This document shows positions 1,751 to 21,325 of a stretch of DNA of 21,720 nt, one piece after another (the first letter of the stretch is position 1; the number at the start of each line of letters is the position of its first letter). This stretch comes from a bacterium (lineage in GTDB: Bacteria > SZUA-182 > DTGQ01). The notes beneath the pieces were generated by a model. That model was not told where the DNA came from and searched no databases. It saw only the letters and a program-made list of their open reading frames with translations. The DNA lies in assembly GCA_040752695.1 (NCBI GenBank), contig JBFMGO010000102.1, positions 1 through 21,720 on the forward strand, given 5' to 3'. The translations under genes were made by a program, and so were the position numbers.

Positions 1751-2305
1751 TTACAGAAGAGGAAGAAGGGCGCTGGAACCTAAATAAACAGGGAGTATAC
1801 CGTTTGGAAATGCTCCCGGAATAGCGGCTAGAAACCCTATAGCTGCTGGATTGGCCACTGGAATAAAATCTGAAATAAAGCTTGAAGAGGTCACCGGCAA
1901 TGTTGCGTAGTCTGCTGGAAGGGTCAAAACCTTAATTGATCCGTTTGATTTTATTAAGCTTGGAGGGGGCCAAAAATCGACACCACCAATTGGATCAAAA
2001 TAGGCCATACCCAGGGGTGTATTATAAAGAAGCCATGGGTAGCTTAGTGATGGGTTCCACGTTAATCCGGGTTCAACGGGCAAGATAGTAGATTTGGTTA
2101 ATTCAGTTACTATTGGGACCGGCACCCCGGCAGCATCAAGAGGTGATAGAACCGACGGCCATAAAGGCCATAAGGTATTATAAGGTGGCAAGGCTGCCCA
2201 GTTTTGTGCATAAGCTGTGGATGTGGGTGAATACGTTAAGAATAAAGCAAACGATAAAGTGACCGTTATGAAAAATAACCGTGAGAGCCTCTTCTCGATC
2301 ATCAT
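1751..2305 (-). CDS. Secreted Pro/Trp-rich hypothetical protein
   Basis: ATG at 2305 preceded by AAGGGG (ORF track extends to TTG 2326). Basic N-terminus, hydrophobic helix and AYA|Q signal-peptidase site. Mature part starts QNWAALPPYNTLWPLWPSVLSP. No recognisable domain. Confidence 0.75.
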   Translation of the reverse strand: MMIEKRLSRLFFITVTLSFALFLTYSPTSTAYAQNWAALPPYNTLWPLWPSVLSPLDAAGVPVPIVTELTKSTILPVEPGLTWNPSLSYPWLLYNTPLGMAYFDPIGGVDFWPPPSLIKSNGSIKVLTLPADYATLPVTSSSFISDFIPVANPAAIGFLAAIPGAFPNGILPVYLGSSALLPLL

Positions 2306-2462
2306 TTTGGAAATTCCCCTTTCCAATCCGCAAAGCAGTTCTAAAGGATTTCAACGTATGTTTTCAGCATGCTCTGAGCTTTTGCTCTTTTCTCCCTTTT
2401 CATCTCCTTTCTCTTATTTTAATATCTTCGCTCATATACAGTAGCCACCACACCCCTTCTTT

Positions 2463-2832: not shown

Positions 2833-3660
2833 TTACCGTATCCCTGCACCCCGCAATGAAAAATTCAAGGTCACTTCGATCAAGATGGAATCCTCCGGCA
2901 TGCTGCCGGGGAAAGGGGGAAAAGGGTTTCCATCCTTTACCGCGGCCAAGGCCGCATTATCTAATAGATCGATCCGGGAGCTCCGGATTACCTGAATCTG
3001 CTCCACCCGTCCGTCACGGTGAAGAAGGAACTGGACATCGACATTTCCTTCCCATCCCATCCGGACAGCCAGAGGGGGGAACTTTTTGTGTTCATCAATA
3101 TGACGATGGATCATTCTCTGATAGGCCAGGGTCTGGTCAAGATGCTCATAGGCGACTTTGGCCTGAAGCGGAATCCGGGGAAGAGAGCCAGGCGCAATCT
3201 GACCGACTACAGCCGAACCGCCGGACCGGCCTGAAGAGCCGGACCAGGGTACATAAAGCCCTCCATCGGAGCGGTCTTTGGAATTGGAGAGAGGAACAGA
3301 AAGTTTTTCCACTGCACCGGAATTAAGTGCTTTTTCACTGTCAATGAGTGGCGCGGGCGATGTCTGCGAAAAAGCAGGGTTTATGGGCGCCGGTGACCTG
3401 TCTGCAACTTTCATGTTCCGCGCCTGAGAGAGAGGCTTGGGACGCAGGTAAGGCTTGGGAATATCCCTCGGCGGCTGGGCTTGTCTTGTGGTTTGATTAT
3501 CTTCTTTCAAAGGCATGGCCCGTAAGTCCACTTCGAACAAAAGATCAGAGGCGCGCAGATGTACCCATCGGCCCGCAGCCAGGAAGGAAATCGTATGCAG
3601 TACAAAGGAAAAGAGAAGAAAATATCTTATGGTATGGTTTTTTGTTTTTTTTCTCGGCAT
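2833..3660 (-). CDS. tonB: Energy transducer TonB
   Basis: N-terminal TM helix with SxxLH motif (SFVLH), Pro-rich linker, and TonB C-terminal domain (KKFPPLAVRMGWEGNVDVQF...RSSRIDLLDNAALAAV...PFPPFP). Lies downstream of exbB-exbD. ATG 3660 preferred over TTG 3675. Confidence 0.9.
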   Translation of the reverse strand: MPRKKTKNHTIRYFLLFSFVLHTISFLAAGRWVHLRASDLLFEVDLRAMPLKEDNQTTRQAQPPRDIPKPYLRPKPLSQARNMKVADRSPAPINPAFSQTSPAPLIDSEKALNSGAVEKLSVPLSNSKDRSDGGLYVPWSGSSGRSGGSAVVGQIAPGSLPRIPLQAKVAYEHLDQTLAYQRMIHRHIDEHKKFPPLAVRMGWEGNVDVQFLLHRDGRVEQIQVIRSSRIDLLDNAALAAVKDGNPFPPFPGSMPEDSILIEVTLNFSLRGAGIR

Positions 3661-3700
3661 TTGTATTCCCAACACTCAAAAGCAACTCTGTCTCAATGAT

Positions 3701-3758
3701 CGTTTCAAGATCTCATGCGTTTCAAGATCTCACTCGTTTCAAGACCTCTGGCGTTTCA
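3701..3758. repeat. 17-bp tandem repeat (~3.4 copies) between exbD and tonB
   Basis: CGTTTCAAGA(T/C)CTCnnn units start at 3701, 3718, 3735 and 3752 (partial). Confidence 0.85.
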
Positions 3759-3772
3759 CCATATTTTGTCAT

Positions 3773-4177
3773 CTAAAGATCTCCGTCCGTAGCGATGCAA
3801 AGTCTCTCTGCACCGGCTTTCCTGGCGATATCCATCACTTTAACCGCCTTGTTCAGGATAATTCCCCGATCCGCTTTGACAATGACCAGCTTATACTGGG
3901 CATTTGCAATCATCCCGGCCAGACGGCCATACAACTGGCTCTCATTCAGTTCTTCCTGCTGGAGAAAAATCCTTCCCTCCTTGGATATAAAAACCGTAAT
4001 CTCCTCATGGGTTTGGGCCGCGGTCGCCCTGGCCTGAGGAAGTTTTACCTGGATACCCTCAGTAGTTACAAAATTAGTGGTAAGAAGGAAAAAAATCAAA
4101 AGTTGAAAGACAATGTCTATCATGGGCGTCATATTCATTGAGGCGTCAAGCCTCCTTCGGTAACTGATTTCAATCAT
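3773..4177 (-). CDS. exbD: Biopolymer transport protein ExbD/TolR
   Basis: NMTPMIDIVFQLLIFFLL TM motif with the conserved Asp; VKLPQA; VIVKAD...VKVMDIARKAG. Confidence 0.95.
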   Translation of the reverse strand: MIEISYRRRLDASMNMTPMIDIVFQLLIFFLLTTNFVTTEGIQVKLPQARATAAQTHEEITVFISKEGRIFLQQEELNESQLYGRLAGMIANAQYKLVIVKADRGIILNKAVKVMDIARKAGAERLCIATDGDL

Positions 4178-4274
4178 AGCCTTATTCCATTTCCACTTTT
4201 TGATTAGGTTTGATCTATCTGCTTCATATGCTCCATACTATCAGATATTCATTGCTCATACCGCTGTTTCTTAT

Positions 4275-4323
4275 ACAGTCTGCTTCTCACACGATACAGA
4301 GACAGTCTGCTTCTCACACGATA
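4275..4323. repeat. 22-bp direct duplication (27-bp period) spanning the exbB stop codon
   Basis: ACAGTCTGCTTCTCACACGATA at 4275-4296 and 4302-4323; further TGCTTC(TC)A-like copies nearby (4220, 4324). Confidence 0.85.
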
Positions 4324-4943
4324 TGCTTCTCATGCAATACTTCCAGAAGCTCCACCGAGGAATCCTGCATGTCATGGCTGAAATTCTCCACCTTCCCGAC
4401 CAGGTAATTATAGGCCACAACCGTAGGCAAAGCCACGGCCAGCCCAAAGGCGGTGGTCAGGAGTGCCTCCCAGATTCCCCCGGCCAGGACACTGGCATTG
4501 ACTTTTCCCCCTAATTGCTGAATGACCATGAAGGCTTTGATCATTCCGGTCACCGTACCGAAAAGTCCCAGCAAGGGGGCGATATTCCCTATGGTAGCCA
4601 GAGTGGGCAGATAGCGGTCAAGGTCCCGCAGTTCCTGCTGACCAGCATGAGAGAGAGCCTTTTCTATTTCCGCCAGGTTCTTGCAGCATCCGCTGTAATG
4701 AGACTTTTCAATTCCCTTGGCCAGGATATTTCCGATAGGCCCCTTAGTCTGCTTGCACTCCTTGAGTGCATCTTCTACTCTCCCTTCCTTGATCAACTCC
4801 TTGATCTTATCCAGAAAAAGTGGGTCCTTGAGCTGCGCCCGATGAAACCGGAACAGCCTCTCGGAGATTACAGCTACAGAAACCAGAGAACACAGAACGA
4901 TTGGTATAACTAATGGTCCGCCTTTCATCAAAAAGCTAATCAT
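4314..4943 (-). CDS. exbB: MotA/TolQ/ExbB proton channel protein
   Basis: LATIGNIAPLLGLFGTVTGMIKAF and LAGGIWEALLTTAFGLAVALP TM motifs; purine-rich RBS upstream (AAGGAGAAGGA). Confidence 0.95.
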   Translation of the reverse strand: MISFLMKGGPLVIPIVLCSLVSVAVISERLFRFHRAQLKDPLFLDKIKELIKEGRVEDALKECKQTKGPIGNILAKGIEKSHYSGCCKNLAEIEKALSHAGQQELRDLDRYLPTLATIGNIAPLLGLFGTVTGMIKAFMVIQQLGGKVNASVLAGGIWEALLTTAFGLAVALPTVVAYNYLVGKVENFSHDMQDSSVELLEVLHEKHIV

Positions 4944-4966
4944 ATTTCCTTCTCCTTGAAATTAAG

Positions 4967-5130
4967 GTCTTATCAGGTATCGCCTTATCCAGCCGCTGCC
5001 TTATCAGGGAATGCCTTGTCAGATATCGCTTTGTCAGAGTAAGCCGTTGGCAGATGATGCCTTGCCAAGTCATTGCCTTATCAGGGCATTGCCTTATCAA
5101 GTCATTGCCTTATCAGGTAATGCCTCACCG
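4967..5130. repeat. Degenerate 15-16-bp tandem array (~11 units) between the repeat-protein gene and exbB
   Basis: GCCTTATCAG-core units start at 4967, 4982, 4998, 5013, 5028, 5043, 5059, 5075, 5091, 5107 and 5122. Confidence 0.85.
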
Positions 5131-5139
5131 GGCTATGTA

Positions 5140-7287
5140 TTACTGAGTGAGATTGTCGATCTTATCAGCGACTCCGTCATGGTTTGTATCTTGTTTGCGG
5201 CAGGTTACTGCTTCAGTGTGATCGTAGTATTCCCAGAAATCAGCTTTCCCGTCGTGGTCTGTGTCTTCCTCGATATGCTCAAGTTTTCCGGCCTTGTAGA
5301 AGATCCAAAGGTCTGTCCGGCCATCCTGGTCCTTATCTTTTTCCCCTCTGACCGGATGCTCCTGCTCATCGTAACACCAAGTAAGTTCGAACTTGCCGTT
5401 TTCATCCTCATCCTGTTTGCTTTGGATCATTTTCCCGGCAGGTGAATAAATTTCGGTAGTGTCCATGCGGCCGTCAAGGTTGGTATCCATTTCCTTGCTC
5501 TGGATTACCTTCCCCTGGTAATGCCAGCAGATATCAGGTTTTTCGTCCCCGTTGGAGTCCTGCTCCTTGCGAATAAGTTCCCCCTTCTGGTAAAAATCCC
5601 AGCTATCCACTTTACCGTCTGTATCGCTGTCCTGCCATGCCTTGCTGATTTTGCCCTTTTCATACTCAGCCCAAAGATCTATGGTGCCATCAAAGTTTGA
5701 ATCCTGGCGGCTTTTTTTCGGGAGCTCGTTTGCATCAAGCTCCACCCAAATATCGATTTTTCCGTCTTTATTGCTGTCCTCCTGCTGCTCGACAGCTTTC
5801 CCGTTCCGGTACTGTATCCAGAGATTGACCCTGCCATCACCACTGGTATCCATCTCCCTTTTTTGGGGAACCCCTTTGGCAAAGGTGGTGAAGCTGTCCA
5901 TGCGGCCGTCCCCGTCCTGGTCCAGAGTGCTCCTTTCGACCTGCCCCTGGCTGTCGAAGAAGATCTCAAGATCGATCTTCCCATCTTTATTTTCATCAAG
6001 GGTCTGGCGACGCAGTCTTTCATTCTCATAGTAAGAGACGCGATCGAAGATCAAGCCCTTGCCTGAATCCTTGTCCAAATCAATGGCCGAACCCTTACCC
6101 GAACCCTTGGCCGAACTCTTGCCCGAACCCTTGGCCGAACTCTTGCCCGAACCCTTGGCCGAGTCCTTGGCCACGTCTCTGGCCGAATCCCTGGCCGTGC
6201 CCTTGACTTCGCCCTTGTCCGCGCCCCTGTTCAGGCCCTTGTCCGTACTCTCGACCATGCCCTTGGTCAAATCCTTGCCGGTTGCCTCTTCCATCCGGAT
6301 AATCCGTCCTTTCTCAAAGAAGCTTCGCTGATCAGTTATGCCATCGAAATCGGTATCCTGCTCACTTCTGGCAAGTTTTTCGTCTGCATCGAACCAGAGC
6401 CACTGATCGGCCTTTCCATCCTCGTTCTTGTCCTGCTCCTGCCTGGCCAGTTTTTCCTGCCGGAAATAATCCCATACATCCATGTGTCCATCGGCGTTGC
6501 TATCACGCTTCTGGAGCTCAAGCACGCCGTTCTTATACTCGCCGACAAGATCCTCCCGGCCATCGAAATTGCGGTCCTGTCTGCTTTCGCGAATATTTTC
6601 GTTTGCATCAAAGAAGACCCGTCCATCTACTTTTCCATCCTCGTTCTGATCGCGTTCCTGCCGGTCGAGCTTCCCCTGCTTAAAGTAATCCCAGGTGTCC
6701 ATTGTACCGCTGGCATTCGTATCCCGTTGAACCTCGGAGAGCTCGTTCCCCCGGTATTTCTTGACCTGGTCGATTTGTCCATTAAAGTCACGGTCGATTT
6801 TCTCCAGTACAGGCTTTCCCTCCTTATTGTATTCGATCCAAAGGTCCGGCTTTCCATCGCGGTTTTTATCACTGCTTGTGGCAGTCAGTTTCTCGTTCTC
6901 CCCCAGTTGAACCCAGTGATCAGGGGCACCGTCGCCATCCTGGTCATGCTCCTGTCTGGTCCGGACGCCATTTTCAAAATAATCCCAGGTGTCCTTTTGC
7001 CCGTTAAAGTCAGTATCCCTGATCATGGTAAGGATTTTTCCAGCCTGATAGGTTTGCCAGTTGTCGATTTGGCCATCAAAATTGGAGTCTATTTCAACCC
7101 TCTCCAGATCGCCCCGATCGCTGTAGTAACCCCACAGGTCCGGTTTACCATCCTGGTTTTTATCCTCAGCATGTGGCTTCTGGGACTTGGCAGGTGAATC
7201 GGTACGTATTTTGGCAGATGAACAGGTATAAAAAGTGACAATCAAACCAAAGACCATAACCAAGCAAAGAGGTAACTTCCTTCTCAT
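5140..7287 (-). CDS. Exported 715-aa repeat protein with 24 Dx[DN]xDGxxD (Ca-binding-type) repeats and a central low-complexity insert
   Basis: N-terminal signal peptide (MRRKLPLCLVMVFGLIVTFYTCSSA). 23-24-aa repeats of the form D-x-[DN]-x-D-G-x-x-D-x-W-x-x-[YF]: 12 before and 12 after a Gly/Ser/Lys/Asp-rich insert. RBS GGGAG upstream. Confidence 0.9.
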   Translation of the reverse strand: MRRKLPLCLVMVFGLIVTFYTCSSAKIRTDSPAKSQKPHAEDKNQDGKPDLWGYYSDRGDLERVEIDSNFDGQIDNWQTYQAGKILTMIRDTDFNGQKDTWDYFENGVRTRQEHDQDGDGAPDHWVQLGENEKLTATSSDKNRDGKPDLWIEYNKEGKPVLEKIDRDFNGQIDQVKKYRGNELSEVQRDTNASGTMDTWDYFKQGKLDRQERDQNEDGKVDGRVFFDANENIRESRQDRNFDGREDLVGEYKNGVLELQKRDSNADGHMDVWDYFRQEKLARQEQDKNEDGKADQWLWFDADEKLARSEQDTDFDGITDQRSFFEKGRIIRMEEATGKDLTKGMVESTDKGLNRGADKGEVKGTARDSARDVAKDSAKGSGKSSAKGSGKSSAKGSGKGSAIDLDKDSGKGLIFDRVSYYENERLRRQTLDENKDGKIDLEIFFDSQGQVERSTLDQDGDGRMDSFTTFAKGVPQKREMDTSGDGRVNLWIQYRNGKAVEQQEDSNKDGKIDIWVELDANELPKKSRQDSNFDGTIDLWAEYEKGKISKAWQDSDTDGKVDSWDFYQKGELIRKEQDSNGDEKPDICWHYQGKVIQSKEMDTNLDGRMDTTEIYSPAGKMIQSKQDEDENGKFELTWCYDEQEHPVRGEKDKDQDGRTDLWIFYKAGKLEHIEEDTDHDGKADFWEYYDHTEAVTCRKQDTNHDGVADKIDNLTQ
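6056..6286 (-). repeat. In-frame 12-bp minisatellite encoding (S/D)xKG-type tetrapeptides
   Basis: Plus-strand units such as GCCCGAACCCTT / GGCCGAACTCTT; translates as KDSAKGSGKSSAKGSGKSSAKGSGKG. Confidence 0.85.
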
Positions 7288-7710
7288 CTTTCTTCTTCTC
7301 CCGGCGTAATAATGGCTTAATTTTCAGCTCGAAAGCAAAAATTTTAACCTGCTGGCAACGGTATACCAGCGTAAAAATTTCCAGCCTGAAAGCAAAAAAG
7401 CCATGAAAAGTTTCCTCCGGTATTTTCTTGCCGGAAGAAGCCTTCATGGCTTCGACTTCTTTTCCTCTGCACTACCATGTAATTGATCTGGCAGTGCACT
7501 GGTCACTATTTTTTAAAAATAGTAATAATATAAGTGTGCGTAATACTATCGATAAAAATTAAACTATGACTGCTACAAGCGGAATAAAACCCTTTCCGGT
7601 TCTCAAAGAGTAAATGGGAATCTTCTTGATCCCAATTCCCCGCTAACAGACAAATTGACTATACTTTTGCATTTTTCAGTAACTGATTGAAATATCAATA
7701 GAAATTGATA

Positions 7711-7856: not shown

Positions 7857-7885
7857 ACAATACCAGGCGAGAGCCTTTTTGTCAA
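7857..7885 (-). promoter_or_regulatory. Putative sigma70 promoter for the repeat protein-exbB-exbD-tonB operon
   Basis: Minus strand TTGACA (7885-7880), 17-bp spacer, TATTGT (7862-7857) preceded by TGn. A second TATAAT lies at 7851-7846. Confidence 0.6.
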
Positions 7886-8098: not shown

Positions 8099-9292
8099 AT
8101 GATTAGAGCGAGTGGAATGAGAATAATGAACATACTATGCACAATAAGTGGTATAAGTATCATAAATGCAGTAACCATGAGACGAAATATACATATCGTA
8201 CCTATCATTTTATTTATGACCTTCATGATAGGCTTATCGCCGGTACAGGCCGCTGTTGCACCGGACCAGCCGCCGGAAGGTCCGGGCGGCGCGGATTACA
8301 CTTGCAGCAAGGTTATCAAGACAGTACACGGCTCCGATGATTTAACCTATTACCTGTTCGAACCGGATGGGCCCAGGCCGGAGACTGCACCAGTGATAGT
8401 TTTCATCCATGGGTGGGGAGGGTCCAACCCGGATTATTACGATACATGGATAGAGCATCTGGTCAGGAAGGGTAATATCGTTATTTATCCGGTATATCAA
8501 TCCTGGAGTTCCCTGTTTACCAGTAACAGATATACCTCAAACTGCATCCAGGCAATTGTGGATGCGATTGAGCTGCTTCAAAACCAGGCCCAAAATCAGG
8601 CCCAAGACCAGAGTCAAAACCAGGGCCAGGGCCACCCCAAAGCGGACCTTGACAAATTTGCCGTAGTGGGGCATTCAGTTGGCGGGATACTGGCCCTCAA
8701 TGTCGCTGCACTGGCCCGGCAATCCGGCCTGCCTGTCCCAAAGGCGATCATGTCGGTCGAGCCAAGGATGGTACCGATGCTGTCCATGGAGGACTTGTCA
8801 GCGATACCGTCCCGGACCCTGTTTCTGGTGGTTGCGGCTGACCGGGATTTTTTGTCAGCCGATGACTCAGTCATGGTCTTTCGCTCTGTCAGCCGGGTGC
8901 CGTTTGAAAACAAAGACTTTATCATTATAATATCGGATAACTACGGGCAGCCGTCTCTGATAGCCGATCACCTGGCTCCTACCTGTAACGCTACGGGGAG
9001 TGCCGGATTCATAGGAGGCGTCGATACCAATGCCCTTGATTATTATGGCACATGGAAGCTGTTTGACGCGCTTACTGACGCGGCATTTTATGGCACGAAC
9101 CGGGAGTATGCGCTTGGCAACACTCCCCAGCAGAGGTACATGGGGAATTGGAGTGATGGCACGCCGGTAAAGGAATTGGTCGTCACCGATCGTCCCCGTT
9201 CGAGGCAAAAAGGAAGGTTGACGACCCCTACTCCACGGTCAAGGTACCGGGAGCGACAAAGTATGGAGTCTGAACATCAGGGTGGCTCTTGA
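8099..9292 (+). CDS. Secreted alpha/beta-hydrolase (chlorophyllase/cutinase-like esterase)
   Basis: PVIVFIHGWGG oxyanion motif, nucleophile elbow VVGHSVGG, candidate catalytic Asp (ADRD) and His (ADHLAP). Signal peptide ending VQA|A. True start may be ATG 8177. Confidence 0.88.
   Translation: MIRASGMRIMNILCTISGISIINAVTMRRNIHIVPIILFMTFMIGLSPVQAAVAPDQPPEGPGGADYTCSKVIKTVHGSDDLTYYLFEPDGPRPETAPVIVFIHGWGGSNPDYYDTWIEHLVRKGNIVIYPVYQSWSSLFTSNRYTSNCIQAIVDAIELLQNQAQNQAQDQSQNQGQGHPKADLDKFAVVGHSVGGILALNVAALARQSGLPVPKAIMSVEPRMVPMLSMEDLSAIPSRTLFLVVAADRDFLSADDSVMVFRSVSRVPFENKDFIIIISDNYGQPSLIADHLAPTCNATGSAGFIGGVDTNALDYYGTWKLFDALTDAAFYGTNREYALGNTPQQRYMGNWSDGTPVKELVVTDRPRSRQKGRLTTPTPRSRYRERQSMESEHQGGS
8579..8632 (+). 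repeat. In-frame 12-bp repeat encoding QNQAQNQAQDQSQNQGQG
   Basis: CAAAACCAGGCC CAAAATCAGGCC CAAGACCAGAGT CAAAACCAGGGC CAGGGC. Confidence 0.85.
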
Positions 9293-12782: not shown

Positions 12783-12857
12783 GTCCCCATCGTCTAGCCC
12801 GGTCAAGGACATCGCCCTTTCACGGCGGTAACGGGGGTTCGAATCCCCCTGGGGACG
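12783..12857 (+). tRNA. tRNA-Glu (anticodon TTC), CCA not encoded
   Basis: Acceptor stem GTCCCCA/TGGGGAC, D-arm GTCTAGCCCGGTCAAGGAC, anticodon arm TCGCC-CTTTCAC-GGCGG, T-arm GGGGG-TTCGAAT-CCCCC, discriminator G. Confidence 0.97.
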
Positions 12858-13282: not shown

Positions 13283-16200
13283 ATGAAGTATGAGAGTATG
13301 AGATGTCTTGGTATCAAGGATCACTTACTGTGGTTAGGGATTGGGTTGTCGGTATTTTTCGTCATCATCGAATCGGTTCTTTGTTCTTTCGTATTCCACA
13401 AAGGATCTTTTATCAGCCAGTTACTTACGGTGAACCCTCTGGTGATCTGGTCGCGTTTGCTTGTTCTGGGGCTTATCCTTACCTTTGCTGTCTATGCACG
13501 GCTCACTATGGCCAGACGGAGACAGATTGAAGAGGCGCTGCGAAAATCAAAGAGGGAACTGATTATCAGGAACCGGATCGCCGGCATTTTTCTCACTATC
13601 CCCACCGATGCCGAGATATACACGGCAGTGCTGGAGGTGATCTTAAGCGTAACGGAGAGCAAGCGCGGGTACTTTGGTTATATCAACCAGGATGGAGCCC
13701 TTGCCAGTTTCTCTTTAACTAAAGACCCCCGGAATCAGTCTCTGACCTGCAACAAAGAATTGATCTTTTCGAAAGAATCGTGGGAAGGCATCTGGGGGCA
13801 ATCCCTGAAAGAGAAAAAGACCCTGTACTCGAATACCCCTCTTTCCGTTTCTGAAGGGCATCCTGCACTTCTGCGGGCTCTGGCTGTGCCGATCCTTTAT
13901 CAGGATAGTATTATCGGGCAGATTCTGGTAGCTGACAAGGGAGTTGACTATACCAAAGATGATCAGGATCTTTTGGAAATCACTGCCGGCCATATAGCTC
14001 CTATACTCAATACAAGATCGCAAAGGGACAGACAGGAAAAAGAGCGCCGGTGGATGGAACAGACGATTCAGGCATCTCATCTTTTTCTTAAAATTACTAA
14101 CTGGCATACGGAGACAGTTCCTTTACTTGAGGAATTCAGGGATGAAGTTCGAAAATTCACCGGCTGCGAGGCAGCGGGGATCCGCATCCTGGATAATGAG
14201 GGCCGTATTCCCTATCATGTCTATGCGGGCTTCAGCCGGGAATTTTATGAAGAAGAGAGCCCTCTGTCAATCAATTCAGATCAGTGTATGTGTATCGATG
14301 TCATTAAAGGGGCAACGGATCCGAAGTTCTCCTTCTACACAAAAAACGGCTCCTTCTTCATAAATGGTACGACCCGTTTCCTGGCCACGGTTTCGGAAAA
14401 ACAGAAAAGGCAAATCCGCAACAGGTGTAATCAGGCGGGATATGAATCGGTAGCTCTGGTGCCGATCCGACTGCATGAGCAAAATCTTGGGTTGATCCAC
14501 GTGGCCGATCGCCGGGAGAACATGATTCCTTTGAATATGGTAGAGGCGCTGGAGGGAGCGGCACTGCAGTTGGGTGAAGCCATTCAGCGGATACAGGCGG
14601 AGCAGGCGAGTAAATGTGCCTATATGGAACTCAAGCAGATTTTTAATACCGCGGTCGATGGCATGCGGGTAGTTAACAAGGATTTTACCATACTTCGGAT
14701 TAATGAAATGTTTGCTTCACTATCGGGGAGGGGGAGGGATGAGTCACTTGGCAAAAAGTGCTATGAAGTATTTTGGGGTAACCTGTGCCACACTCCCGGT
14801 TGCCCGTTAGCCAGAATCCTCAGCGGTGAAGAGCGTATCGAGTGTGATGTCGAAAAAGAGCGCAGCGATGGCAGCAGAATTTCGTGTATGGTGACAGCGA
14901 CACCGTTTCGCGGGGCACAGGGGGAGTTGATCGGCATTGTCGAGAATTTCAAGGACATCACCGAGCGCAAGCGGACAGAAGGAGAATTGCAAAGGATACG
15001 GAGCGAATTAGAGGTTAAGGTAAAGGAGCGAACCGCCGAGCTTCTCTCAGCAAACAGGGCACTGCAAGAAGAGATCCAAGAGCGCAAAAGGACCGAGGAG
15101 GCGCTGCGCCAGAGCGAAGCCCAGCTTCGTCAATCGCAGAAGATGGAGGCGATCGGCATGCTGGCCGGTGGTGTAGCTCATGACTTTAATAACCTGGTGC
15201 AGGCCATTATGGGCTTTAGTGAGCTTTTGATGGATGGCTGTGTCAGCAGTGAAGAGGTACATGAGTTTGCCGAGGAAATCAAGAGTGCCAGCAGCCGGGC
15301 CGCCATACTGACCCGGCAGCTTCTGGCCTTTGGCCGCAGGCAGATACTCCAGCCGGAGGTATTGAATGTCAATAAGGTTATCGCCAGTACGGAAAAGATG
15401 CTTCGACGCCTCATCGGGGAAGACATCGATCTGGTCACCGATCTTGGATCAGGGCTTGGATCGGTAAAAGCCGATCCGGGGCAAATCGAGCAGGTCATCA
15501 TGAATCTGTCGGTCAATGCCCGCGATGCCATGCCCCGTGGGGGCAGACTCACGATCAGGTCCGATAGTGTGGTCCTGACTGAAAATGAGTGCAGGGTTAT
15601 CCCTGAAGGGCGTCCAGGCACATTTGTCTGCCTGTCAGTAACCGATACGGGATGCGGAATGGACAGAGCGGTGATGGACAGGATCTTTGAGCCATTTTTT
15701 ACCACCAAGGGTCCGGGAAACGGCACAGGGCTCGGTTTATCTACCGTCTACGGCATTATCAAACAGCACGAAGGGTGGATAGATGTCTCCAGCCAGCCTG
15801 GCCAGGGTTCGACTTTCAGGATGTTTCTGCCGGTTTTCTCTGTCAAGCTCCCGGAAAAGAACCATGAACGGGCCTTGCCGCTGCAGGGACTTCAGGGCAA
15901 TGGAGAAAGAATCCTCCTGGTGGAGGATGAGCAGGGCGCCCGTCAATTTGCTGCACAGGCACTTCGGAAAAACGGCTATATCGTGTGTGAGGCTGCCAGT
16001 GCCAGGGAAGCATCGGATATTTTTTCAGCTAGCGGGGATTCTTTTCATCTGGTCTTCAGTGATGTGGTTCTGCCCGATAAGACCGGCATTGAACTGGTTG
16101 ACCATCTCCTTGCCCTCAGACCGGAACAGCCAATTCTGTTTTGCAGCGGTTACACAGACCAGAAGTCACAATGGCCGCTCATATGCAAAAGAAAATTCCG

Positions 16201-16285
16201 GTTTCTCCAAAAGCCTTACCTGTTGGCCGAACTGCTGAGCGCAGTTCAAGAAACCATCAGGCTCAGCAAAGCTCATAGCTCATAA
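13283..16285 (+). CDS. Hybrid sensor histidine kinase (2 TM - GAF - GAF - PAS - HisKA - HATPase - REC)
   Basis: GAF motifs LAVPI...GQILVAD and VALVPI...GLIHVAD; PAS/PAC (GKKCYEVF...CP, FKDITERK); H-box GGVAHDFNN; N-box QVIMNLSVNARDAM; G-boxes DTGCGM, FEPFFTTK, GTGLGLS; receiver ILLVEDE...SDVVLP...QKPY. Confidence 0.95.
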   Translation: MKYESMRCLGIKDHLLWLGIGLSVFFVIIESVLCSFVFHKGSFISQLLTVNPLVIWSRLLVLGLILTFAVYARLTMARRRQIEEALRKSKRELIIRNRIAGIFLTIPTDAEIYTAVLEVILSVTESKRGYFGYINQDGALASFSLTKDPRNQSLTCNKELIFSKESWEGIWGQSLKEKKTLYSNTPLSVSEGHPALLRALAVPILYQDSIIGQILVADKGVDYTKDDQDLLEITAGHIAPILNTRSQRDRQEKERRWMEQTIQASHLFLKITNWHTETVPLLEEFRDEVRKFTGCEAAGIRILDNEGRIPYHVYAGFSREFYEEESPLSINSDQCMCIDVIKGATDPKFSFYTKNGSFFINGTTRFLATVSEKQKRQIRNRCNQAGYESVALVPIRLHEQNLGLIHVADRRENMIPLNMVEALEGAALQLGEAIQRIQAEQASKCAYMELKQIFNTAVDGMRVVNKDFTILRINEMFASLSGRGRDESLGKKCYEVFWGNLCHTPGCPLARILSGEERIECDVEKERSDGSRISCMVTATPFRGAQGELIGIVENFKDITERKRTEGELQRIRSELEVKVKERTAELLSANRALQEEIQERKRTEEALRQSEAQLRQSQKMEAIGMLAGGVAHDFNNLVQAIMGFSELLMDGCVSSEEVHEFAEEIKSASSRAAILTRQLLAFGRRQILQPEVLNVNKVIASTEKMLRRLIGEDIDLVTDLGSGLGSVKADPGQIEQVIMNLSVNARDAMPRGGRLTIRSDSVVLTENECRVIPEGRPGTFVCLSVTDTGCGMDRAVMDRIFEPFFTTKGPGNGTGLGLSTVYGIIKQHEGWIDVSSQPGQGSTFRMFLPVFSVKLPEKNHERALPLQGLQGNGERILLVEDEQGARQFAAQALRKNGYIVCEAASAREASDIFSASGDSFHLVFSDVVLPDKTGIELVDHLLALRPEQPILFCSGYTDQKSQWPLICKRKFRFLQKPYLLAELLSAVQETIRLSKAHSS

Positions 16286-16443
16286 AATACAAAAGGCAGC
16301 CCCAGAGACACAGAAACGAAGAATTAAACTGGATAAATTCTCCCCTTCCTGATACAATCATATTCACTTTGAAAAGTTGAGGTACGGTGGATTTCGGCAC
16401 TTTTGGGAGGGAAATAAGGCATGAAAAAAGGCATCGAGCGACC

Positions 16444-17646
16444 ATGATGCATGAGCCAAAAGATAAAGGATTCCTCATCGCTTTCTTTTTTCCGTGCATT
16501 CTCTTTTACCTTTTATCTGTCTTTGGTGCGACTGAATGCACAGGCGGCGATCTTTTCGTCCCGGATGATTTCCCTACAATCCAGGAGGCCATTGATACGG
16601 CAGAATTCGGAGATACCGTCCGGGTGGGGCCCGGCACGTATTACGAGAAGATTATCATCAAGGAAGGCGTATCACTGGTGAGCGACAGCGGGCCCGAGGG
16701 GGAAACGCTGGTAGACGGCCCCGGAGAAAAAAAGGTCTATCAAAGAACGCTCCAGACTATTATCGATGGATCAAAGCTTGATCCTCCGGACTATCTGGTG
16801 AGTTTCCAGAAAGAAACCAGTGCTCCGATGAAACTCGACGGCTTCACGATCTGTAATTTTCCAGTCAAAGCTATTGATAAATTATACCTGGTGGAAGTGC
16901 GGGGCTGCTCTGCCACCGTGATCAATAATATTATCTGCAAAAACCACTCGAAGGGCAAAGGGGGAGGGATGCTCCTGACAGGGTTGGGGCCGTCCATGGG
17001 ATCTCCTCTGGAGACAGTAGCAAAACCTGTGGCACAAAACAACGTAATTTACGATAATACCGGTACGGGTATCGCTAATGGGCCGAATTCACTCGCCTTG
17101 ATTGAGGATAACGAGATATTCGAGAACCATGCCGACCAGGCGAAAGACAGCGAGCAGGACGTGCCGGGTATTGGAATAAGAGAATATGCCCGGCCGCGGA
17201 TAGTCCGGAATCTTTGCTACCGGAATGGAAGCGGGATCGGCGGCCTTGATCTGGTCACTCATGATCAGCCCATCGTGATTCAGGATAATACGATCCGGGA
17301 TAACTGGCGGGCAGGCATCGGCTTGCGGGGAATTAACAATCAGCAGGAAAAAATTACCGTCATCATTGAGGGAAATAACATTTATGGAAACCTGAGAGCC
17401 GGAATGCGGATTGAAAATATTACCGATGCCACCGTCCAGGGGAATCAGATCTGTAATAACCTGCGGGCGGGGGCTGCCTTCTATGGGCTCAAAGATGCAC
17501 GGATTGTCAGGAATGTCTTTGCAGGGAATCTTACCGCCGGATTAGTCCTGGACATTCAAAGGGGCGTGATTGAACAGAACCGAATTTACCGCAACCTGAA
17601 CACCGGCATAAATATCCTCATCCCTTTTGAGAAACCACAGGAGTGA
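16444..17646 (+). CDS. Exported right-handed parallel beta-helix (pectin-lyase-fold / NosD-like) protein
   Basis: Hydrophobic N-terminus; VPDDFPTIQEAIDTA...GDTVRVGPGTYYE cap; repeated IxxNxIxxNxxxGI rungs. ATG 16444/16447 preferred over GTG 16387. Confidence 0.85.
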   Translation: MMHEPKDKGFLIAFFFPCILFYLLSVFGATECTGGDLFVPDDFPTIQEAIDTAEFGDTVRVGPGTYYEKIIIKEGVSLVSDSGPEGETLVDGPGEKKVYQRTLQTIIDGSKLDPPDYLVSFQKETSAPMKLDGFTICNFPVKAIDKLYLVEVRGCSATVINNIICKNHSKGKGGGMLLTGLGPSMGSPLETVAKPVAQNNVIYDNTGTGIANGPNSLALIEDNEIFENHADQAKDSEQDVPGIGIREYARPRIVRNLCYRNGSGIGGLDLVTHDQPIVIQDNTIRDNWRAGIGLRGINNQQEKITVIIEGNNIYGNLRAGMRIENITDATVQGNQICNNLRAGAAFYGLKDARIVRNVFAGNLTAGLVLDIQRGVIEQNRIYRNLNTGINILIPFEKPQE

Positions 17647-17649
17647 TGG

Positions 17650-18732
17650 ATGCTTATGAAACGACAGAGGATGCTTATCTCAGGGGTGCTGCTGCTGTGT
17701 CTGATTCTCCAGTCCTGTCACCGGGGATCGATAGTGCACAGAAAGCTCTTCGTGCCGGATGAATTCCCCACCCTGGAGGAGGCCCTCAAAATTGCAGTCT
17801 CAGGAGACACTATTATCGTGGGGCCGGGAAGGTATTCCATTTCCTCAAAGGGCATCAGCATTACCCAGGAAAAACTAACCCTTCGCAGCGCTTTGGGAGC
17901 GAAGGAAACGATTCTCATGGGAACGGGAAACGGCCCGGTCGTTTCTTTCGGGAAGGATTGCCAGGCTGTTTTTGATGGCTTTACGGTCATGGGGTCCGAC
18001 CCGAACCGGGAATGTCCCCTGAAGGGAGGGGGAATCTTGTGTGATTCGTATTCCTCCCCCACCATTATCAACAGCTCCATAAGAGACAACAAAGCTCAAT
18101 TTGGAGGAGGGATTTACTGCGCACCTTCCTCCTCGCCCAGTATTCTTCAAAATACCATCAGCGATAATCAGGCCACGGTCCTGGGAGGCGGAATTTTTTC
18201 TTTTCATGCATCTCCCAAAATCATGAAGAACCGGATTATTCGAAATACCGCCCATTTTGGAGCAGGATTATTTTGTAATGCGGATAAGGCTCTTATCCAA
18301 AACAATTTCATCGTCGAAAATAAAGCCTTGCATTCCGGCGGAGGATGCAGTTGTATCGACTCGTCGGCCACTCTGGTCAATAATACTCTGGCCCGTAACC
18401 ATGCCAGTTTCGGCGGGGGTATTTTTGGATCAGCCGGCGAATTTCAGGTGCTCAATACGATCCTCTGGGGAAACCAGGACGACCTTTGCCTTATTGATTT
18501 CAAGATGCTCTCAAGGCCGAGGTTTTCCGATATCCAGGATGCGGATTATCTGGGAATCAATGGAAATATTTCCCAGGACCCATTGTTTATCGATCCAAAC
18601 CAGGGGGATTATCGGCTGAGCCCTGAATCCGTCTGCCATCATGCAGGAGATTCCCAAAAAATGTACAATAATCCCGATAGTTCCCGAAATACTATTGGCG
18701 CACAGGGAGGACCGGAAGCTTTCACCTTTTGA
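17650..18732 (+). CDS. Right-handed parallel beta-helix protein, probable lipoprotein
   Basis: Lipobox-like LQSC; VPDEFPTLEEAL...GDTIIVGPGRY cap; Pmp-like GGGI(x)C / NxAxFGGGI rungs; C-terminal GNISQDPLF...DYRL...IGAQGGP. Starts 3 bp after the upstream stop. Confidence 0.87.
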   Translation: MLMKRQRMLISGVLLLCLILQSCHRGSIVHRKLFVPDEFPTLEEALKIAVSGDTIIVGPGRYSISSKGISITQEKLTLRSALGAKETILMGTGNGPVVSFGKDCQAVFDGFTVMGSDPNRECPLKGGGILCDSYSSPTIINSSIRDNKAQFGGGIYCAPSSSPSILQNTISDNQATVLGGGIFSFHASPKIMKNRIIRNTAHFGAGLFCNADKALIQNNFIVENKALHSGGGCSCIDSSATLVNNTLARNHASFGGGIFGSAGEFQVLNTILWGNQDDLCLIDFKMLSRPRFSDIQDADYLGINGNISQDPLFIDPNQGDYRLSPESVCHHAGDSQKMYNNPDSSRNTIGAQGGPEAFTF

Positions 18733-18786
18733 ACCAGAGGGTTCCTGGCACCTGTCTTATGGCGGGGCAATAGGGAACAGCAGAAT

Positions 18787-18866
18787 TGCCTGCTTATCCG
18801 TTTACCTGCTTATCCGTTTACCTGTTTATCTGTTTGCCTGTTTATCTGTTTATCTGTTTATCTGTT
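18787..18866. repeat. 8-bp tandem repeat (~10 copies)
   Basis: TGCCTGCT TATCCGTT TACCTGCT TATCCGTT TACCTGTT TATCTGTT TGCCTGTT TATCTGTT TATCTGTT TATCTGTT. Confidence 0.9.
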
Positions 18867-19012
18867 GATTAACCTGTTACATTATGGTATATTCATAAAA
18901 ATAACTGTTTTTTTGTCGGGCAAGTGTTTTCTTACGAAGTCTTTTTCTTACTAAACTTACGTAAGAGTTTTTCGAACTCAAGGCAGCCTGGCTTAGAATA
19001 AAAAGCTTCTCA

Positions 19013-21325
19013 ATGAGACACTCCTCAACCGTCCCCTGGTGGGATAGGATTAAAAATAAGCTTATCATATCCTTGTCCGCCGTTCTTGTCTTTTCCCTTA
19101 TTCTGCTTGGCCTGATTTGTGCCATTTCCTTCAAAATGAATATCATCGAGCAGATCAGCAATAAAAATAAACAATTGTCAACAAATATCAAAGATGGAAC
19201 AGACCTGTTCCTCTCGAGCATTATGAATGACCTTTCCTCTTTGGCTGGCACCCTGGGAGAGGAAGGAGACCTGTGGGGGGATCAGCAGCAGGAAATTCTC
19301 GATCGGTATGTAAAGAAAATGCCCGATGTCGATCAATTGACGCTCCTCGATAATCAGGGAAAAGAATGTGTGACAGTTTTTAAACAGACTGTTGACCTTG
19401 CCCGTGGCGGACGGGAAGCCTCTGGCCGTACTGAACAGGAAAAAACCGCTCTTCAGGAAAACCTGTTTGTCAGTCCCGTATATCCGTCTTACCGCGCAGT
19501 ACCCATGATCGATGTCGTTATGCCGGTCAGGAATTTCGCTGACAATAGAGTGAGGGGGACTATCAAGGCAGGGGTGTCGCTCTGCGGGCTCTGGACGAAA
19601 ATATCCTCCGTCAAATCGGGACCGGAAACAACGATTTACCTCATCGATAAGAATGGAAAATTAATAGCCCATTCTGACATCGGATTAGTTTCCACAGCGA
19701 TTGATTTCAGTCATATTAAGAAGGTAAAGCAGTTTATCTTCGGTGCCAGCCAGAATGATCTCGGGGCGCCATTGATCTATGCGGGAAATAAAAATACCGA
19801 AGTCGTTGGCGTGGCAACGTCTATCGATAGAATGAACTGGGGAGTGGTCGTTGAAGAGTCACTCGATTCAGCCCTGTCCCCTTACTATCGTATCAGGCGA
19901 ATTATTTTTTCCTCTCTGGCCGCTCTCGTTTTCCTGGCCAGTATTACCCTTGGCCTTTTCGTAATCAGGTTTACCCGATCGATCGATACCCTCACCAGAC
20001 AGGCGGATGCCATAAGCGAAGAAGAGCACTCCCCCTCGATAGAAGTGGATTCGAAGGATGAAATTTCCCACCTCGCCGAGATCATCAACCGTATGCAAAA
20101 GCAGCTCTGGGAAAAGAACGAAAAGCTGAAGCGCAGATACAAGGAACTGGAAGCCATTCACGATGAATTCCGGGAATCTTATGACGAACTCGAACAGGTC
20201 AGTGAGAAACTGGAAGCATCGCAGTCCGAATTGCATAAACAGAAGGAATTCGAGAAACAGCTTATTGAAACCGCCAATATCCTGATAGTCGTTCTCAACC
20301 AGAATGGTGAAATCATCCTCTGTAACAGAAAATGTGAAGAAGTAACCGGATACAGCAAGAATTTTATTCTCGGCAAAAGCTGGCTTCAATTGATGCCACC
20401 CTCCGAAGGGAAGGAGGAGTATATCGGCCATTTCCATGCATCCTTGCAAAACAGATGCCCCTCCATCTACGAATGCCCGATCGTAACTCACGATGGAGCG
20501 GTCAGGATAATAGCCTGGCACAGCAATCCTACCTTCGATAAGGCAAATAACATCATAGGCATCCTCAATGTCGGAGAGGATGTCACCGATGAAAAAAGCC
20601 TTCAGCAGGAGCTCGAAACAAAGAACAGGGCTCTGGAAGAGAAGAACGAGGAATTACAAAACTTCGTTTCGATCGTTTCCCATGACCTGAAGAACCCTCT
20701 TTATGTTATCAAATACTTCGCGGACACTCTCTTGCGTGAGCATAAGACCGAACTGGGGGAAGATGTCATCGACTACCTTGAGAGGATCAGAAAAAATGCG
20801 GAAATCACCGAAAAGCTGGTCCGTGACATTCTTGATTTTTCCGAAATCGGCACTTCCGAAGGCGAGTATCAAAATTATCCGATAAGCCAGCTCGTTCAGC
20901 AGGCTGTCGACGGCTTAAGACCCAAGATCGACGAGAAAAATATCCGTCTGGTCATCAGCAGCCAGTTTCCATCCCTTTATTGCAATCCCCACCGGATAAC
21001 GCAGGTATTCATGAACCTCGTTTCGAATGCCATCAAGTTTATGGACACGAAAAAGGAGGCATTGATCGAAATCGGCTGCGCCGGACGGGACGGAGAATAC
21101 GAATTTTTCGTCAGGGACAATGGGATCGGGATTGAAAAAGAATATCACGAAAAAGTCTTTCAGATGTTTCAAAGGCTCAAAGAGCTGAAACATGTGGAGG
21201 GAACCGGCGTGGGCCTGTCTATTGTCAAAAAGATCATCGAAAATCATGGCGGAAGAGTCTGGCTTGATTCCGAGAAGGGAAAAGGATCGACCTTTTACTT
21301 TACGCTCCCGGCTAAAAGACAGTGA
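19013..21325 (+). CDS. Membrane sensor histidine kinase (TM - Cache-like - TM - HAMP - coiled coil - PAS - HisKA - HATPase)
   Basis: Two TM helices; Cache motifs FVSPVY, IYLIDKNGKLIAH, NWGVVVE; HAMP DEISHLAEIINRM; PAS GEDVTDEK; H-box VSHDLKNPL; QVFMNLVSNAIKF, VRDNGIGI, GTGVGLSIVKKI. Confidence 0.95.
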   Translation: MRHSSTVPWWDRIKNKLIISLSAVLVFSLILLGLICAISFKMNIIEQISNKNKQLSTNIKDGTDLFLSSIMNDLSSLAGTLGEEGDLWGDQQQEILDRYVKKMPDVDQLTLLDNQGKECVTVFKQTVDLARGGREASGRTEQEKTALQENLFVSPVYPSYRAVPMIDVVMPVRNFADNRVRGTIKAGVSLCGLWTKISSVKSGPETTIYLIDKNGKLIAHSDIGLVSTAIDFSHIKKVKQFIFGASQNDLGAPLIYAGNKNTEVVGVATSIDRMNWGVVVEESLDSALSPYYRIRRIIFSSLAALVFLASITLGLFVIRFTRSIDTLTRQADAISEEEHSPSIEVDSKDEISHLAEIINRMQKQLWEKNEKLKRRYKELEAIHDEFRESYDELEQVSEKLEASQSELHKQKEFEKQLIETANILIVVLNQNGEIILCNRKCEEVTGYSKNFILGKSWLQLMPPSEGKEEYIGHFHASLQNRCPSIYECPIVTHDGAVRIIAWHSNPTFDKANNIIGILNVGEDVTDEKSLQQELETKNRALEEKNEELQNFVSIVSHDLKNPLYVIKYFADTLLREHKTELGEDVIDYLERIRKNAEITEKLVRDILDFSEIGTSEGEYQNYPISQLVQQAVDGLRPKIDEKNIRLVISSQFPSLYCNPHRITQVFMNLVSNAIKFMDTKKEALIEIGCAGRDGEYEFFVRDNGIGIEKEYHEKVFQMFQRLKELKHVEGTGVGLSIVKKIIENHGGRVWLDSEKGKGSTFYFTLPAKRQ

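Follow-up and report, generated by a model that had tools for sequence, protein, structure and literature searches.

In the canonical ExbB-ExbD-TonB system of E. coli, ExbB and ExbD drive TonB through its D-box and TonB opens receptors, as described in the accessible sections of PMC10907165. Ton systems can include additional genes: in the Vibrio TonB2 system, according to the available part of PMC6957404, TtpB, TtpC, and TtpD are encoded by extra genes, one of them heading the operon, and are essential for TonB-dependent uptake. Calcium-binding Dx[DN]xDG loops flanked by β-strands are also known, and the portion of PMC3123361 that deals with these "calcium blades" defines them by D1, D/N3, D/N5, G6, and an acidic ligand two residues past the motif. 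Here we describe a 21,720-nt stretch of bacterial DNA, referred to as the window, that is the whole of contig C102 (JBFMGO010000102.1) of assembly GCA_040752695.1 (lineage SZUA-182; DTGQ01), a genome (G000) of 6.05 Mb that is 96.6% complete. The window includes an operon in which exbB, exbD, and tonB are preceded by a gene for an exported 715-amino acid (aa) protein with repeated Asp loops, named REP. The reading that we find reasonably likely is that this operon is a four-gene TonB energizing module serving receptors in trans, in which REP would be a periplasmic, probably Ca2+-stabilized accessory most likely acting on TonB. Rather than a receptor-free metal trap, the operon is probably a new auxiliary of uptake machinery of the cobalt/nickel type.

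The operon consists of four co-oriented open reading frames (ORFs) located on the minus strand in the order REP (nucleotides 5140 to 7287), exbB (4314 to 4943, 209 aa), exbD (3773 to 4177, 134 aa), and tonB (2833 to 3675, 280 aa), with gaps of 196, 136, and 97 nt between them. This order, already given in a preliminary description made from the letters of the window, was confirmed by the ORFs and by Pfam matches to MotA_ExbB (PF01618, 119 bits, E-value 1e-34), ExbD (PF02472, 111 bits, E-value 7e-32), and TonB_C (E-value 7e-18). The sequence features of an ExbB-ExbD-TonB system are present: ExbB and ExbD score above the Pfam cut-off, TonB has the full architecture, and there are receptors in the genome. 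ExbD has the transmembrane Asp within TPMIDIVF at aa 17-24. TonB includes a membrane anchor with S23 and H27, a Pro-rich linker, and a TonB_C domain at aa 196-274. A D-box-like strand was assigned at aa 47-51 by position and pattern, the D-box being as defined in the relevant section of PMC10907165, and about 20 residues past this strand there is an R-x-I-P-[RK]-P motif at aa 70-75. H27, P73, and P75 are invariant in 78 aligned rows, and R70, I72, P73, and P75 are retained in the REP-linked TonB proteins. A strong inverted repeat after tonB (nucleotides 2460 to 2491), with a 14-bp stem and terminator-like on the plus strand, is a possible operon end. Two other ExbBD sets are found in the genome, at C21:12717-19546 and C36:5497-8621, one behind two tetratricopeptide repeat (TPR) proteins and the other with an ExbB fused to DUF2341/LamG.

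REP includes 24 motifs in a 24/25-residue register, arranged in two blocks of 12 repeats that were delimited by motif register and structural model. Block 1 (about aa 34-334, nucleotides 6286 to 7188, minus strand) and block 2 (about aa 416-712, nucleotides 5152 to 6042, minus strand) are split by a low-complexity insert (about aa 340-410, nucleotides 6058 to 6270, minus strand) encoded by 12-nt tandem repeats, which has a predicted local distance difference test score (pLDDT) below 50 and is missing from the family consensus, where it corresponds to gap columns of the profile. The label "24-repeat Dx[DN]xDG" used in the preliminary description is right about the number of repeats and slightly generous about the motif, of which 18 copies are strict, 21 fit Dx[DN]x[DN]G, and 23 fit a relaxed form. 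The Dx[DN]x[DN]G count is the highest among the 36,750 reading frames of the genome, the runner-up having 14 in 3,741 aa, and therefore the array is not due to chance. The loop consensus is D1, N/D3, D5, G6, and D9, with D9 present in 22 of the 24 repeats. The most conserved repeats are those at aa 651 and 675, and all seven invariant columns fall within aa 651-689. As had been noted before, the protein is very acidic (pI 4.7; 158 Asp plus Glu versus 112 Lys plus Arg); its His content is 1.4%, the family median being 1.6%. The N-terminus (nucleotides 7213 to 7287, minus strand) resembles a signal peptide, basic and then hydrophobic, and was modeled as a helix at aa 7-26. A lipobox-like pattern was found in just 4 of 81 homologs, and REP is presumably a periplasmic protein.

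Short tandem repeats with units of 12-27 nt occur at nucleotides 3700-3758, 4264-4340, 4976-5125, and 6058-6268, that is, in all three gaps of the operon and in the REP insert. The gaps are longer than in the same-genus genome G002, where they measure about 50 nt each, and similar stutters are found in other genes of the genome, e.g. within the ORF at 8099-9292, which suggests a genome-wide repeat expansion.

REP matches no Pfam family at an E-value of 0.01, FG-GAP and MORN included, and its homologs score at most 23 bits with the MORN/MORN_2 models, for which the cut-off is 29.6. The only NCBIfam match was to Lsa25.6 (NF050087), with 93 bits and an E-value of 1.6e-26, under the 150-bit cut-off. 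An AlphaFold2 model built with 43 sequences is all-β, with two strands per repeat, strands flanking every well-modeled loop, and a disordered insert (mean pLDDT 82, predicted template modeling score 0.55). When compared with 48,161 chains, the closest structures (Z 8.9-10.8) were OspA variants, the CPAP TCP domain, the TarM/GtfA sheet, and MORN proteins; one TCP chain among them had a proline-rich peptide bound in the solved structure. The matches fall mainly on the C-terminal block. Look-alikes in the Atlas were unnamed clusters, with Thermodesulfobacteriota, Nitrospinota, Binatota, and Myxococcota as the commonest phyla, followed by MORN clusters (template modeling (TM) score 0.69-0.70). The model predicts a single-layer β-hairpin ribbon of the MORN/OspA/CPAP kind, whose Asp loops would probably bind Ca2+ as structural ions. 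A likeness to Rhs/teneurin/Tc (YD) shells was set aside as a probable repeat artefact, the low Foldseek E-values being accompanied by TM scores of 0.08-0.14 and root-mean-square deviations (rmsd) of 45-55 Å.

The preliminary description compared the loops to EF-hands and lanmodulin. EF-hand loops have Glu at position 12, and those of lanmodulin have Pro at position 2. A search of Protein Data Bank sequences with the REP family profile matched only lanmodulin (E-value 2.7e-5) and one EF-hand protein, and the comparison stands as far as loop motif and spacing are concerned, to which the match can be attributed. It does not extend further: the predicted fold is all-β, Glu12 is present in 2 and Pro2 in none of the 24 repeats (Glu12 in 17% of 1,422 motifs of the family), and the only match to a pyrroloquinoline quinone (PQQ) dehydrogenase in the 96.6% complete genome was a weak one covering 115 of 595 positions.

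A motif scan for REP in one genome per species gave 573 related stretches; the 80 top-ranking ones, chosen by the REP motif alone, were examined. exbB is present in 79 of these loci, exbD in 77, and tonB in 71, all three being found in 71, and most of the missing motor genes correspond to loci ending at contig edges. By contrast, REP is at none of 76 generic exbD loci used as control, many of which are short. In a sample of 301 genomes of Desulfobacterota, the phylum of genome G061, REP was called at an E-value of 1e-40 or lower in 24. A profile of the N-terminal region of REP-linked TonB proteins (E-value ≤1e-5) identified 20 genomes, all of them among the 24 REP carriers, and gave two weak matches in genomes lacking REP. 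The four carriers missed by this profile are G204 and G332, with a divergent cassette tonB, and two in which the locus is at a contig edge. Three genomes (G198, G291, and G306) have two adjacent REP-TonB pairs each, and in three genomes from the class to which G332 belongs the order is REP-REP-tonB-exbB-exbD. As receptors are found in 270 of the 301 genomes versus REP in 24, REP is specific to a subfamily of Ton systems. The cassette is also carried by cultured Desulfosarcina strains (L059, L069, and L094).

A second phylum (that of G022), probably Nitrospinota judging from the taxa of the Atlas clusters, has a REP homolog of about 243 aa (hhalign probability 99.7) in 66 of 81 genomes. Folding of this short homolog as a single sequence gave a pLDDT of 44 and was not used. 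A tonB is located within 1.5 kb of REP in 22 of the best 30 loci of this phylum, mostly stop-to-start. G370 has three REP copies, each adjoining a tonB, and in G022, as also in genome G009, the REP-tonB pair lacks exbBD nearby. Neighbors of REP in this phylum include cobQ, cobS, cobU, cobT, and cbiX; at L294-L323 the tonB-REP pair lies inside a cluster for cobalamin synthesis and salvage, and the genes that come next are usually one for a small lipoprotein of the c-type cytochrome kind and cobT. The linkage to exbB/exbD/tonB, whose conservation the preliminary description had left to be checked, is thus conserved, in the second phylum as a linkage to tonB, and tonB is the most constant neighbor of REP, ahead of exbBD and of any receptor.

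A 45-row clade of the ExbB tree (SH-like approximate likelihood ratio support 96) joins the ExbB of the window with 44 of the 46 REP-linked ExbB proteins; L087 and L283 are REP-linked and lie outside the clade, and L139, which has no REP adjoining, lies inside. In a tree of TonB_C domains based on only 100 columns, all 48 REP-linked domains are on one side of a branch with a support of 99, together with 13 unlinked ones, although one row taken as unlinked, L391, is REP-linked. The nearest outside neighbor of the window TonB in the tree belongs to the same subfamily, keeps an IPRP-type motif, and is encoded by another tonB of this genome (G000:C8:48059-49006; L007, L404), which stands alone, with no REP or exbBD in the 8 kb retrieved. 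One REP-TonB_C fusion, P0047, was the sole case among the 120 matches listed of 202 and lies on a 1.9-kb contig, which makes it too weak for an argument based on fusion; TonB_C was found in none of 35 longer or mid-length REP relatives scanned (of 150 listed).

No TonB-dependent receptor or β-barrel is encoded by any of the 15 window ORFs scanned against Pfam, in agreement with the preliminary description; this result applies to contig C102 alone. Six TonB-dependent receptor genes are present elsewhere in the genome, on C13, C46, C71 (two), C73, and C124, and no tonB is located near any of them. The receptors on C71 and C124 are accompanied by genes for DUF4198, tetrapyrrole methylase, FmdE, and permease proteins, and these satellites also surround the cassette in relatives. 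There is a receptor within 10 kb in 52 of the best 80 REP loci, and in 28 of the 33 fully flanked ones (with flanks of 8 kb or more each); recurring neighbor clusters at REP loci include binding proteins (Peripla_BP_2, DUF4198). All 24 Desulfobacterota genomes with REP have a receptor. In G007 and G008, of the same order, a string of receptor, DUF4198, and a small gene lies directly upstream of REP, and the same string is found on C71 here; moreover, a receptor gene is just downstream in three of the four closest ExbD relatives. Judged from these arrangements, the simplest reading is that in this genus the cassette was split from its receptors.

The region upstream of the operon provides a second connection to the receptors. 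The best site in a promoter scan (10/12), a candidate sigma-70 promoter with an extended -10 (TTGACA-17-TATTGT), is found at nucleotides 7857 to 7885 of the minus strand. A terminator-like RNA leader, a candidate attenuator, lies at nucleotides 7388 to 7458 (minus strand), ending about 108 nt before the REP gene. The leader hairpin has a folding energy of -32.6 kcal/mol (z -5.0). Promoter-like site and hairpin are both kept in same-genus genomes and recur upstream of the receptor operon on C71, where the former was matched at G000 C71:5247-5288. In a 42-row alignment 99% of the cells of the outer stem are paired, with one covarying pair (15 two-sided changes) and four of the eight pairs never varying. 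The 5' arm is invariant even where unpaired. In the window this arm could instead form a small hairpin of its own, which is mutually exclusive with the terminator. A strict pattern of the leader is present in 41 of the 301 genomes versus none for the reversed control. With a model trained on 42 sites, the one in the window included, 150 of 3,783 candidates in the genome were scored, which gave six distinct sites: this operon, the C71 receptor operon (two), a DUF3842 gene, the C73 receptor, and DUF4198-cbiM-cbiQ on C90. The DUF3842 gene (G000:C71:5504-5980) has its own copy of the leader and shares a divergent region with the receptor operon; its product is a candidate regulator of the leader.

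About 30 of the best 80 loci have the leader immediately before REP, many of these being training rows. The 28 genes behind the leader that were scanned from 30 loci of other genomes encode receptors (7), Ton motor proteins (4), CbiM (3), DUF4198 (2), a binding protein (1), CobN (1), methyltransferases (3), and other (3) or unassigned (4) products. Rfam gave no match in the window at the gathering score; the leader had only chance-level matches up to an E-value of 10, none near the threshold, and was not recognized as a cobalamin or NiCo riboswitch. Cobalamin riboswitches were found in L040, L063, and L128, 3 of 34 sources scanned. Because the leader is shared in this genome by the REP operon, receptor operons, and cbiMQ, it points to one cobalt/nickel/corrinoid uptake regulon, although both the ligand and the co-regulation are read from sequence.

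Taken together, these data are consistent with a module of REP, ExbB, ExbD, and TonB that in this genus no longer lies beside its receptors and would serve them in trans, most likely those on C71, C73, and C124, which would belong to the cobalt/nickel/corrinoid regulon. As established for the family, ExbB and ExbD would tap the proton gradient and TonB would open the receptors. REP, predicted to be an exported soluble single-layer β-hairpin ribbon whose Asp loops probably hold structural Ca2+, could be considered not a substrate receptor but an accessory in the periplasm that is dedicated to this subfamily of TonB proteins. Its likeliest partner would be TonB itself, because of the gene adjacency, the co-conserved linker motif, and the analogy of fold; the suggestion in the preliminary description that the repeat protein is the TonB partner fits well with tonB being its most constant neighbor. 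Single-layer open sheets of the MORN and GtfA type hold extended, often Pro-rich peptides, and because of this and the retention of R70, I72, P73, and P75 the TonB linker is the preferred binding site, which REP would hold or guide. Alternative contacts would be the TonB C-domain, ExbD, or the receptor plug. A more far-reaching version, which we put forward only tentatively, is that REP is an obligatory fourth mechanical subunit of a TonB class that is widespread, a Ca2+-stiffened ribbon of about 48 strands (by estimate about 20 nm if straight) that would lie along the TonB linker at its Pro/Arg motifs as a splint or rail carrying force across the periplasm, with its expression set by an undescribed cobalt/nickel-responsive attenuator RNA.

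Several observations weigh against the favored reading. With regard to the linkage, L022 is fully flanked yet lacks tonB, L139 has the motor genes without REP directly upstream, REP is far from exbD-tonB in G168, and G366 has no tonB adjoining REP. In the second phylum a script found no tonB in 8 of the best 30 loci, although one of them, G410, does have it. Co-inheritance of an operon alone yields co-occurrence, and related genomes are not independent. As for receptors, none was seen within the 12-16 kb retrieved around the cassette in the three G332-class genomes. Several REP-linked TonB proteins (L274-L276) have a degenerate IPRP motif or lack it, it is absent from most of those of the second phylum, for which the count is 3 of 15, and its loose form is found in 8 of 27 unlinked ones. 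The structural matches are middling (rmsd 3-9 Å, 5-10% identity), and for repeat proteins a Z under about 13 may reflect a common arrangement alone. The leader is present in many genomes that lack REP, and the training of its model included the site of the window. Two specific ideas were dropped: that acidic REP binds a basic TonB linker, as the linkers of REP-linked TonB proteins show no excess of basic charge over those of unlinked ones, and that REP is a length ruler, as its correlation with linker length is weak (rho 0.36, n=57, kin not independent); moreover, the second phylum combines a short REP with long TonB linkers. Prediction of a complex between REP (aa 35-715) and TonB (aa 38-280) scored 0.40 versus 0.21 for one control, which gives no answer, and it was not used either way.

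The extended-peptide binding invoked for the TonB linker could also operate at the outer-membrane end, where REP would bind the periplasmic face of the receptor or catch the plug N-terminus pulled by TonB, chaperoning it until the pore reseals. The sheets of MORN and GtfA that REP resembles hold such peptides, a proline-rich motif is named in the title of the CPAP entry, in L284 and L288 the gene immediately before REP encodes a receptor or a plug domain, and every one of the 24 REP genomes has receptors. However, receptors are less constant neighbors than tonB (52 versus 71 of 80), in this genus they have come apart from REP, no Pfam match was obtained for the 675-aa gene that precedes REP in G168, and no receptor was seen near the G332-class cassettes. 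We therefore consider this alternative unlikely.

It is rather improbable that REP buffers metal or corrinoid in the periplasm, taking up the substrate that the receptors release and passing it on, with the linkage reflecting a shared pathway and no contact with the motor. A very acidic protein with 24 carboxylate loops, probably co-regulated with cbiM and DUF4198 genes and located in a cobalamin-pathway context in the second phylum, could well be imagined in this role. Sites consisting of Asp and Asn only and poor in His, on the other hand, suit cobalt and nickel poorly, and the REP loops are of this kind, with the low His content given above; furthermore, REP loci already encode binding proteins (Peripla_BP_2, DUF4198), and in G370 REP follows tonB copies that lie beside different receptors.

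A role of the motor in envelope maintenance, as a machine of the Tol type or a stand-in for the TolQR that is missing, in which REP would be the counterpart of TolB, seems very improbable. The NCBIfam scores are higher for tolQ than for exbB (127 bits, cut-off 221, versus 90) and for tolR than for exbD (73, cut-off 127, versus 47), all of them below cut-off. No clear tolQ ortholog was found in the assembly, its tolA-tolB-pal-cpoB-like cluster (G000:C143:1825-5859) has no adjacent tolQR, and the G332-class cassettes have no nearby receptors. Nevertheless, the tolB and pal homologs are on C143 and not at the operon locus, and neither gene was found in the window or among recurring neighbor clusters; the operon has as its transducer a Pro-rich protein with TonB_C, its leader links it to uptake genes, and G061 has its own tolQRAB-pal elsewhere. 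Finally, the idea of the preliminary description that REP replaces the receptor in a receptor-independent, proton-driven capture or storage of Ca2+ or lanthanides, which drew on the lack of a receptor in the window and on 24 potential cation sites and could now cite the lanmodulin match, is extremely improbable in view of the six receptor genes of the genome, the receptors near 28 of 33 fully flanked homologous loci, and the leader common to receptor operons, all of which suggest that this TonB serves ordinary receptors elsewhere, and in view of the all-β model, the scarcity of Glu12 and lack of Pro2, and the missing PQQ dehydrogenase-length match.

Other features of the window include a 191-aa exported Pro-rich protein (nucleotides 1751-2326, minus strand) with no Pfam or NCBIfam match, paralogs of which with a similar N-terminal motif are encoded on C27. 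A tRNA gene is located at 12783-12857 (plus strand). A gene for a GAF-PAS hybrid kinase (13283-16285) precedes a group of genes (16387-21325, plus strand) that encode two exported β-helix proteins of the NosD-like kind and, after them, a dCache-HAMP-PAS histidine kinase. An intergenic element of about 45 nt, at about 7658-7701 of the minus strand, recurs on more than 20 contigs of the genome and is possibly a regulator site or a small repeat element.

No published description of the REP cassette or of the leader was found in the literature searched, although supplements of RNA-motif surveys, which were outside the search, could list the latter; the REP gene is not mentioned in the accessible text of PMC11247825 or PMC12204202. 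New in this analysis are the interpretation of the receptor-less arrangement as a local split and the leader that ties the operon to the receptor and cbiMQ operons of the genome. The way in which TonB carries force through the periplasm is a matter of ongoing debate, and nearly all work on it concerns three-component systems. A fourth component that is conserved in relatives of sulfate reducers, a second phylum, and candidate lineages would offer a new handle on this question and would also identify how these organisms obtain cobalt, nickel, or corrinoids for their enzymes. The leader is a compact candidate metal-responsive switch without an Rfam family. Since cultured Desulfosarcina carriers exist, both cassette and leader are testable.

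Compared with the canonical system of E. coli, as far as the accessible sections of PMC10907165 describe it, this operon has the same three motor genes, Ser/His anchor, D-box-like strand, Pro-rich linker, and TonB_C domain, and canonical receptors can also lie elsewhere in the genome; it differs in the conserved exported fourth gene and the near-invariant R-x-I-P-[RK]-P motif. The repeats of REP resemble those of the Lsa25.6 family adhesin of Leptospira, whose model covers 196 positions versus 715 aa, and it matches this model below the cut-off. Lanmodulin and EF-hand proteins share the loop motif and a spacing of roughly 25 residues, whereas REP is predicted to be all-β and not helix-loop-helix, with Glu12 rare and Pro2 absent. 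MORN/YwqK-type repeats, the OspA central sheet, and CPAP TCP also have, by prediction for REP, two antiparallel strands per 24-25 residues in a single-layer sheet, although REP has no MORN Pfam match, carries Asp loops along one edge, and is tied to Ton genes. The loops agree with the calcium blades, as these appear in the available part of PMC3123361, in spacing, D9 (22 of 24), position between β-strands, and export; in REP they would be on an open single-layer ribbon instead of propeller blades, a context not met in that part of the paper. Ton systems with accessory genes are already known, and the Vibrio TonB2 system, within what the available part of PMC6957404 covers, can be considered by analogy the best functional precedent for REP, with extra operon genes, one at the head, that encode other proteins; REP itself has no Pfam family and is predicted to be a β-hairpin ribbon, and its operon includes no TtpC-like or TPR gene.

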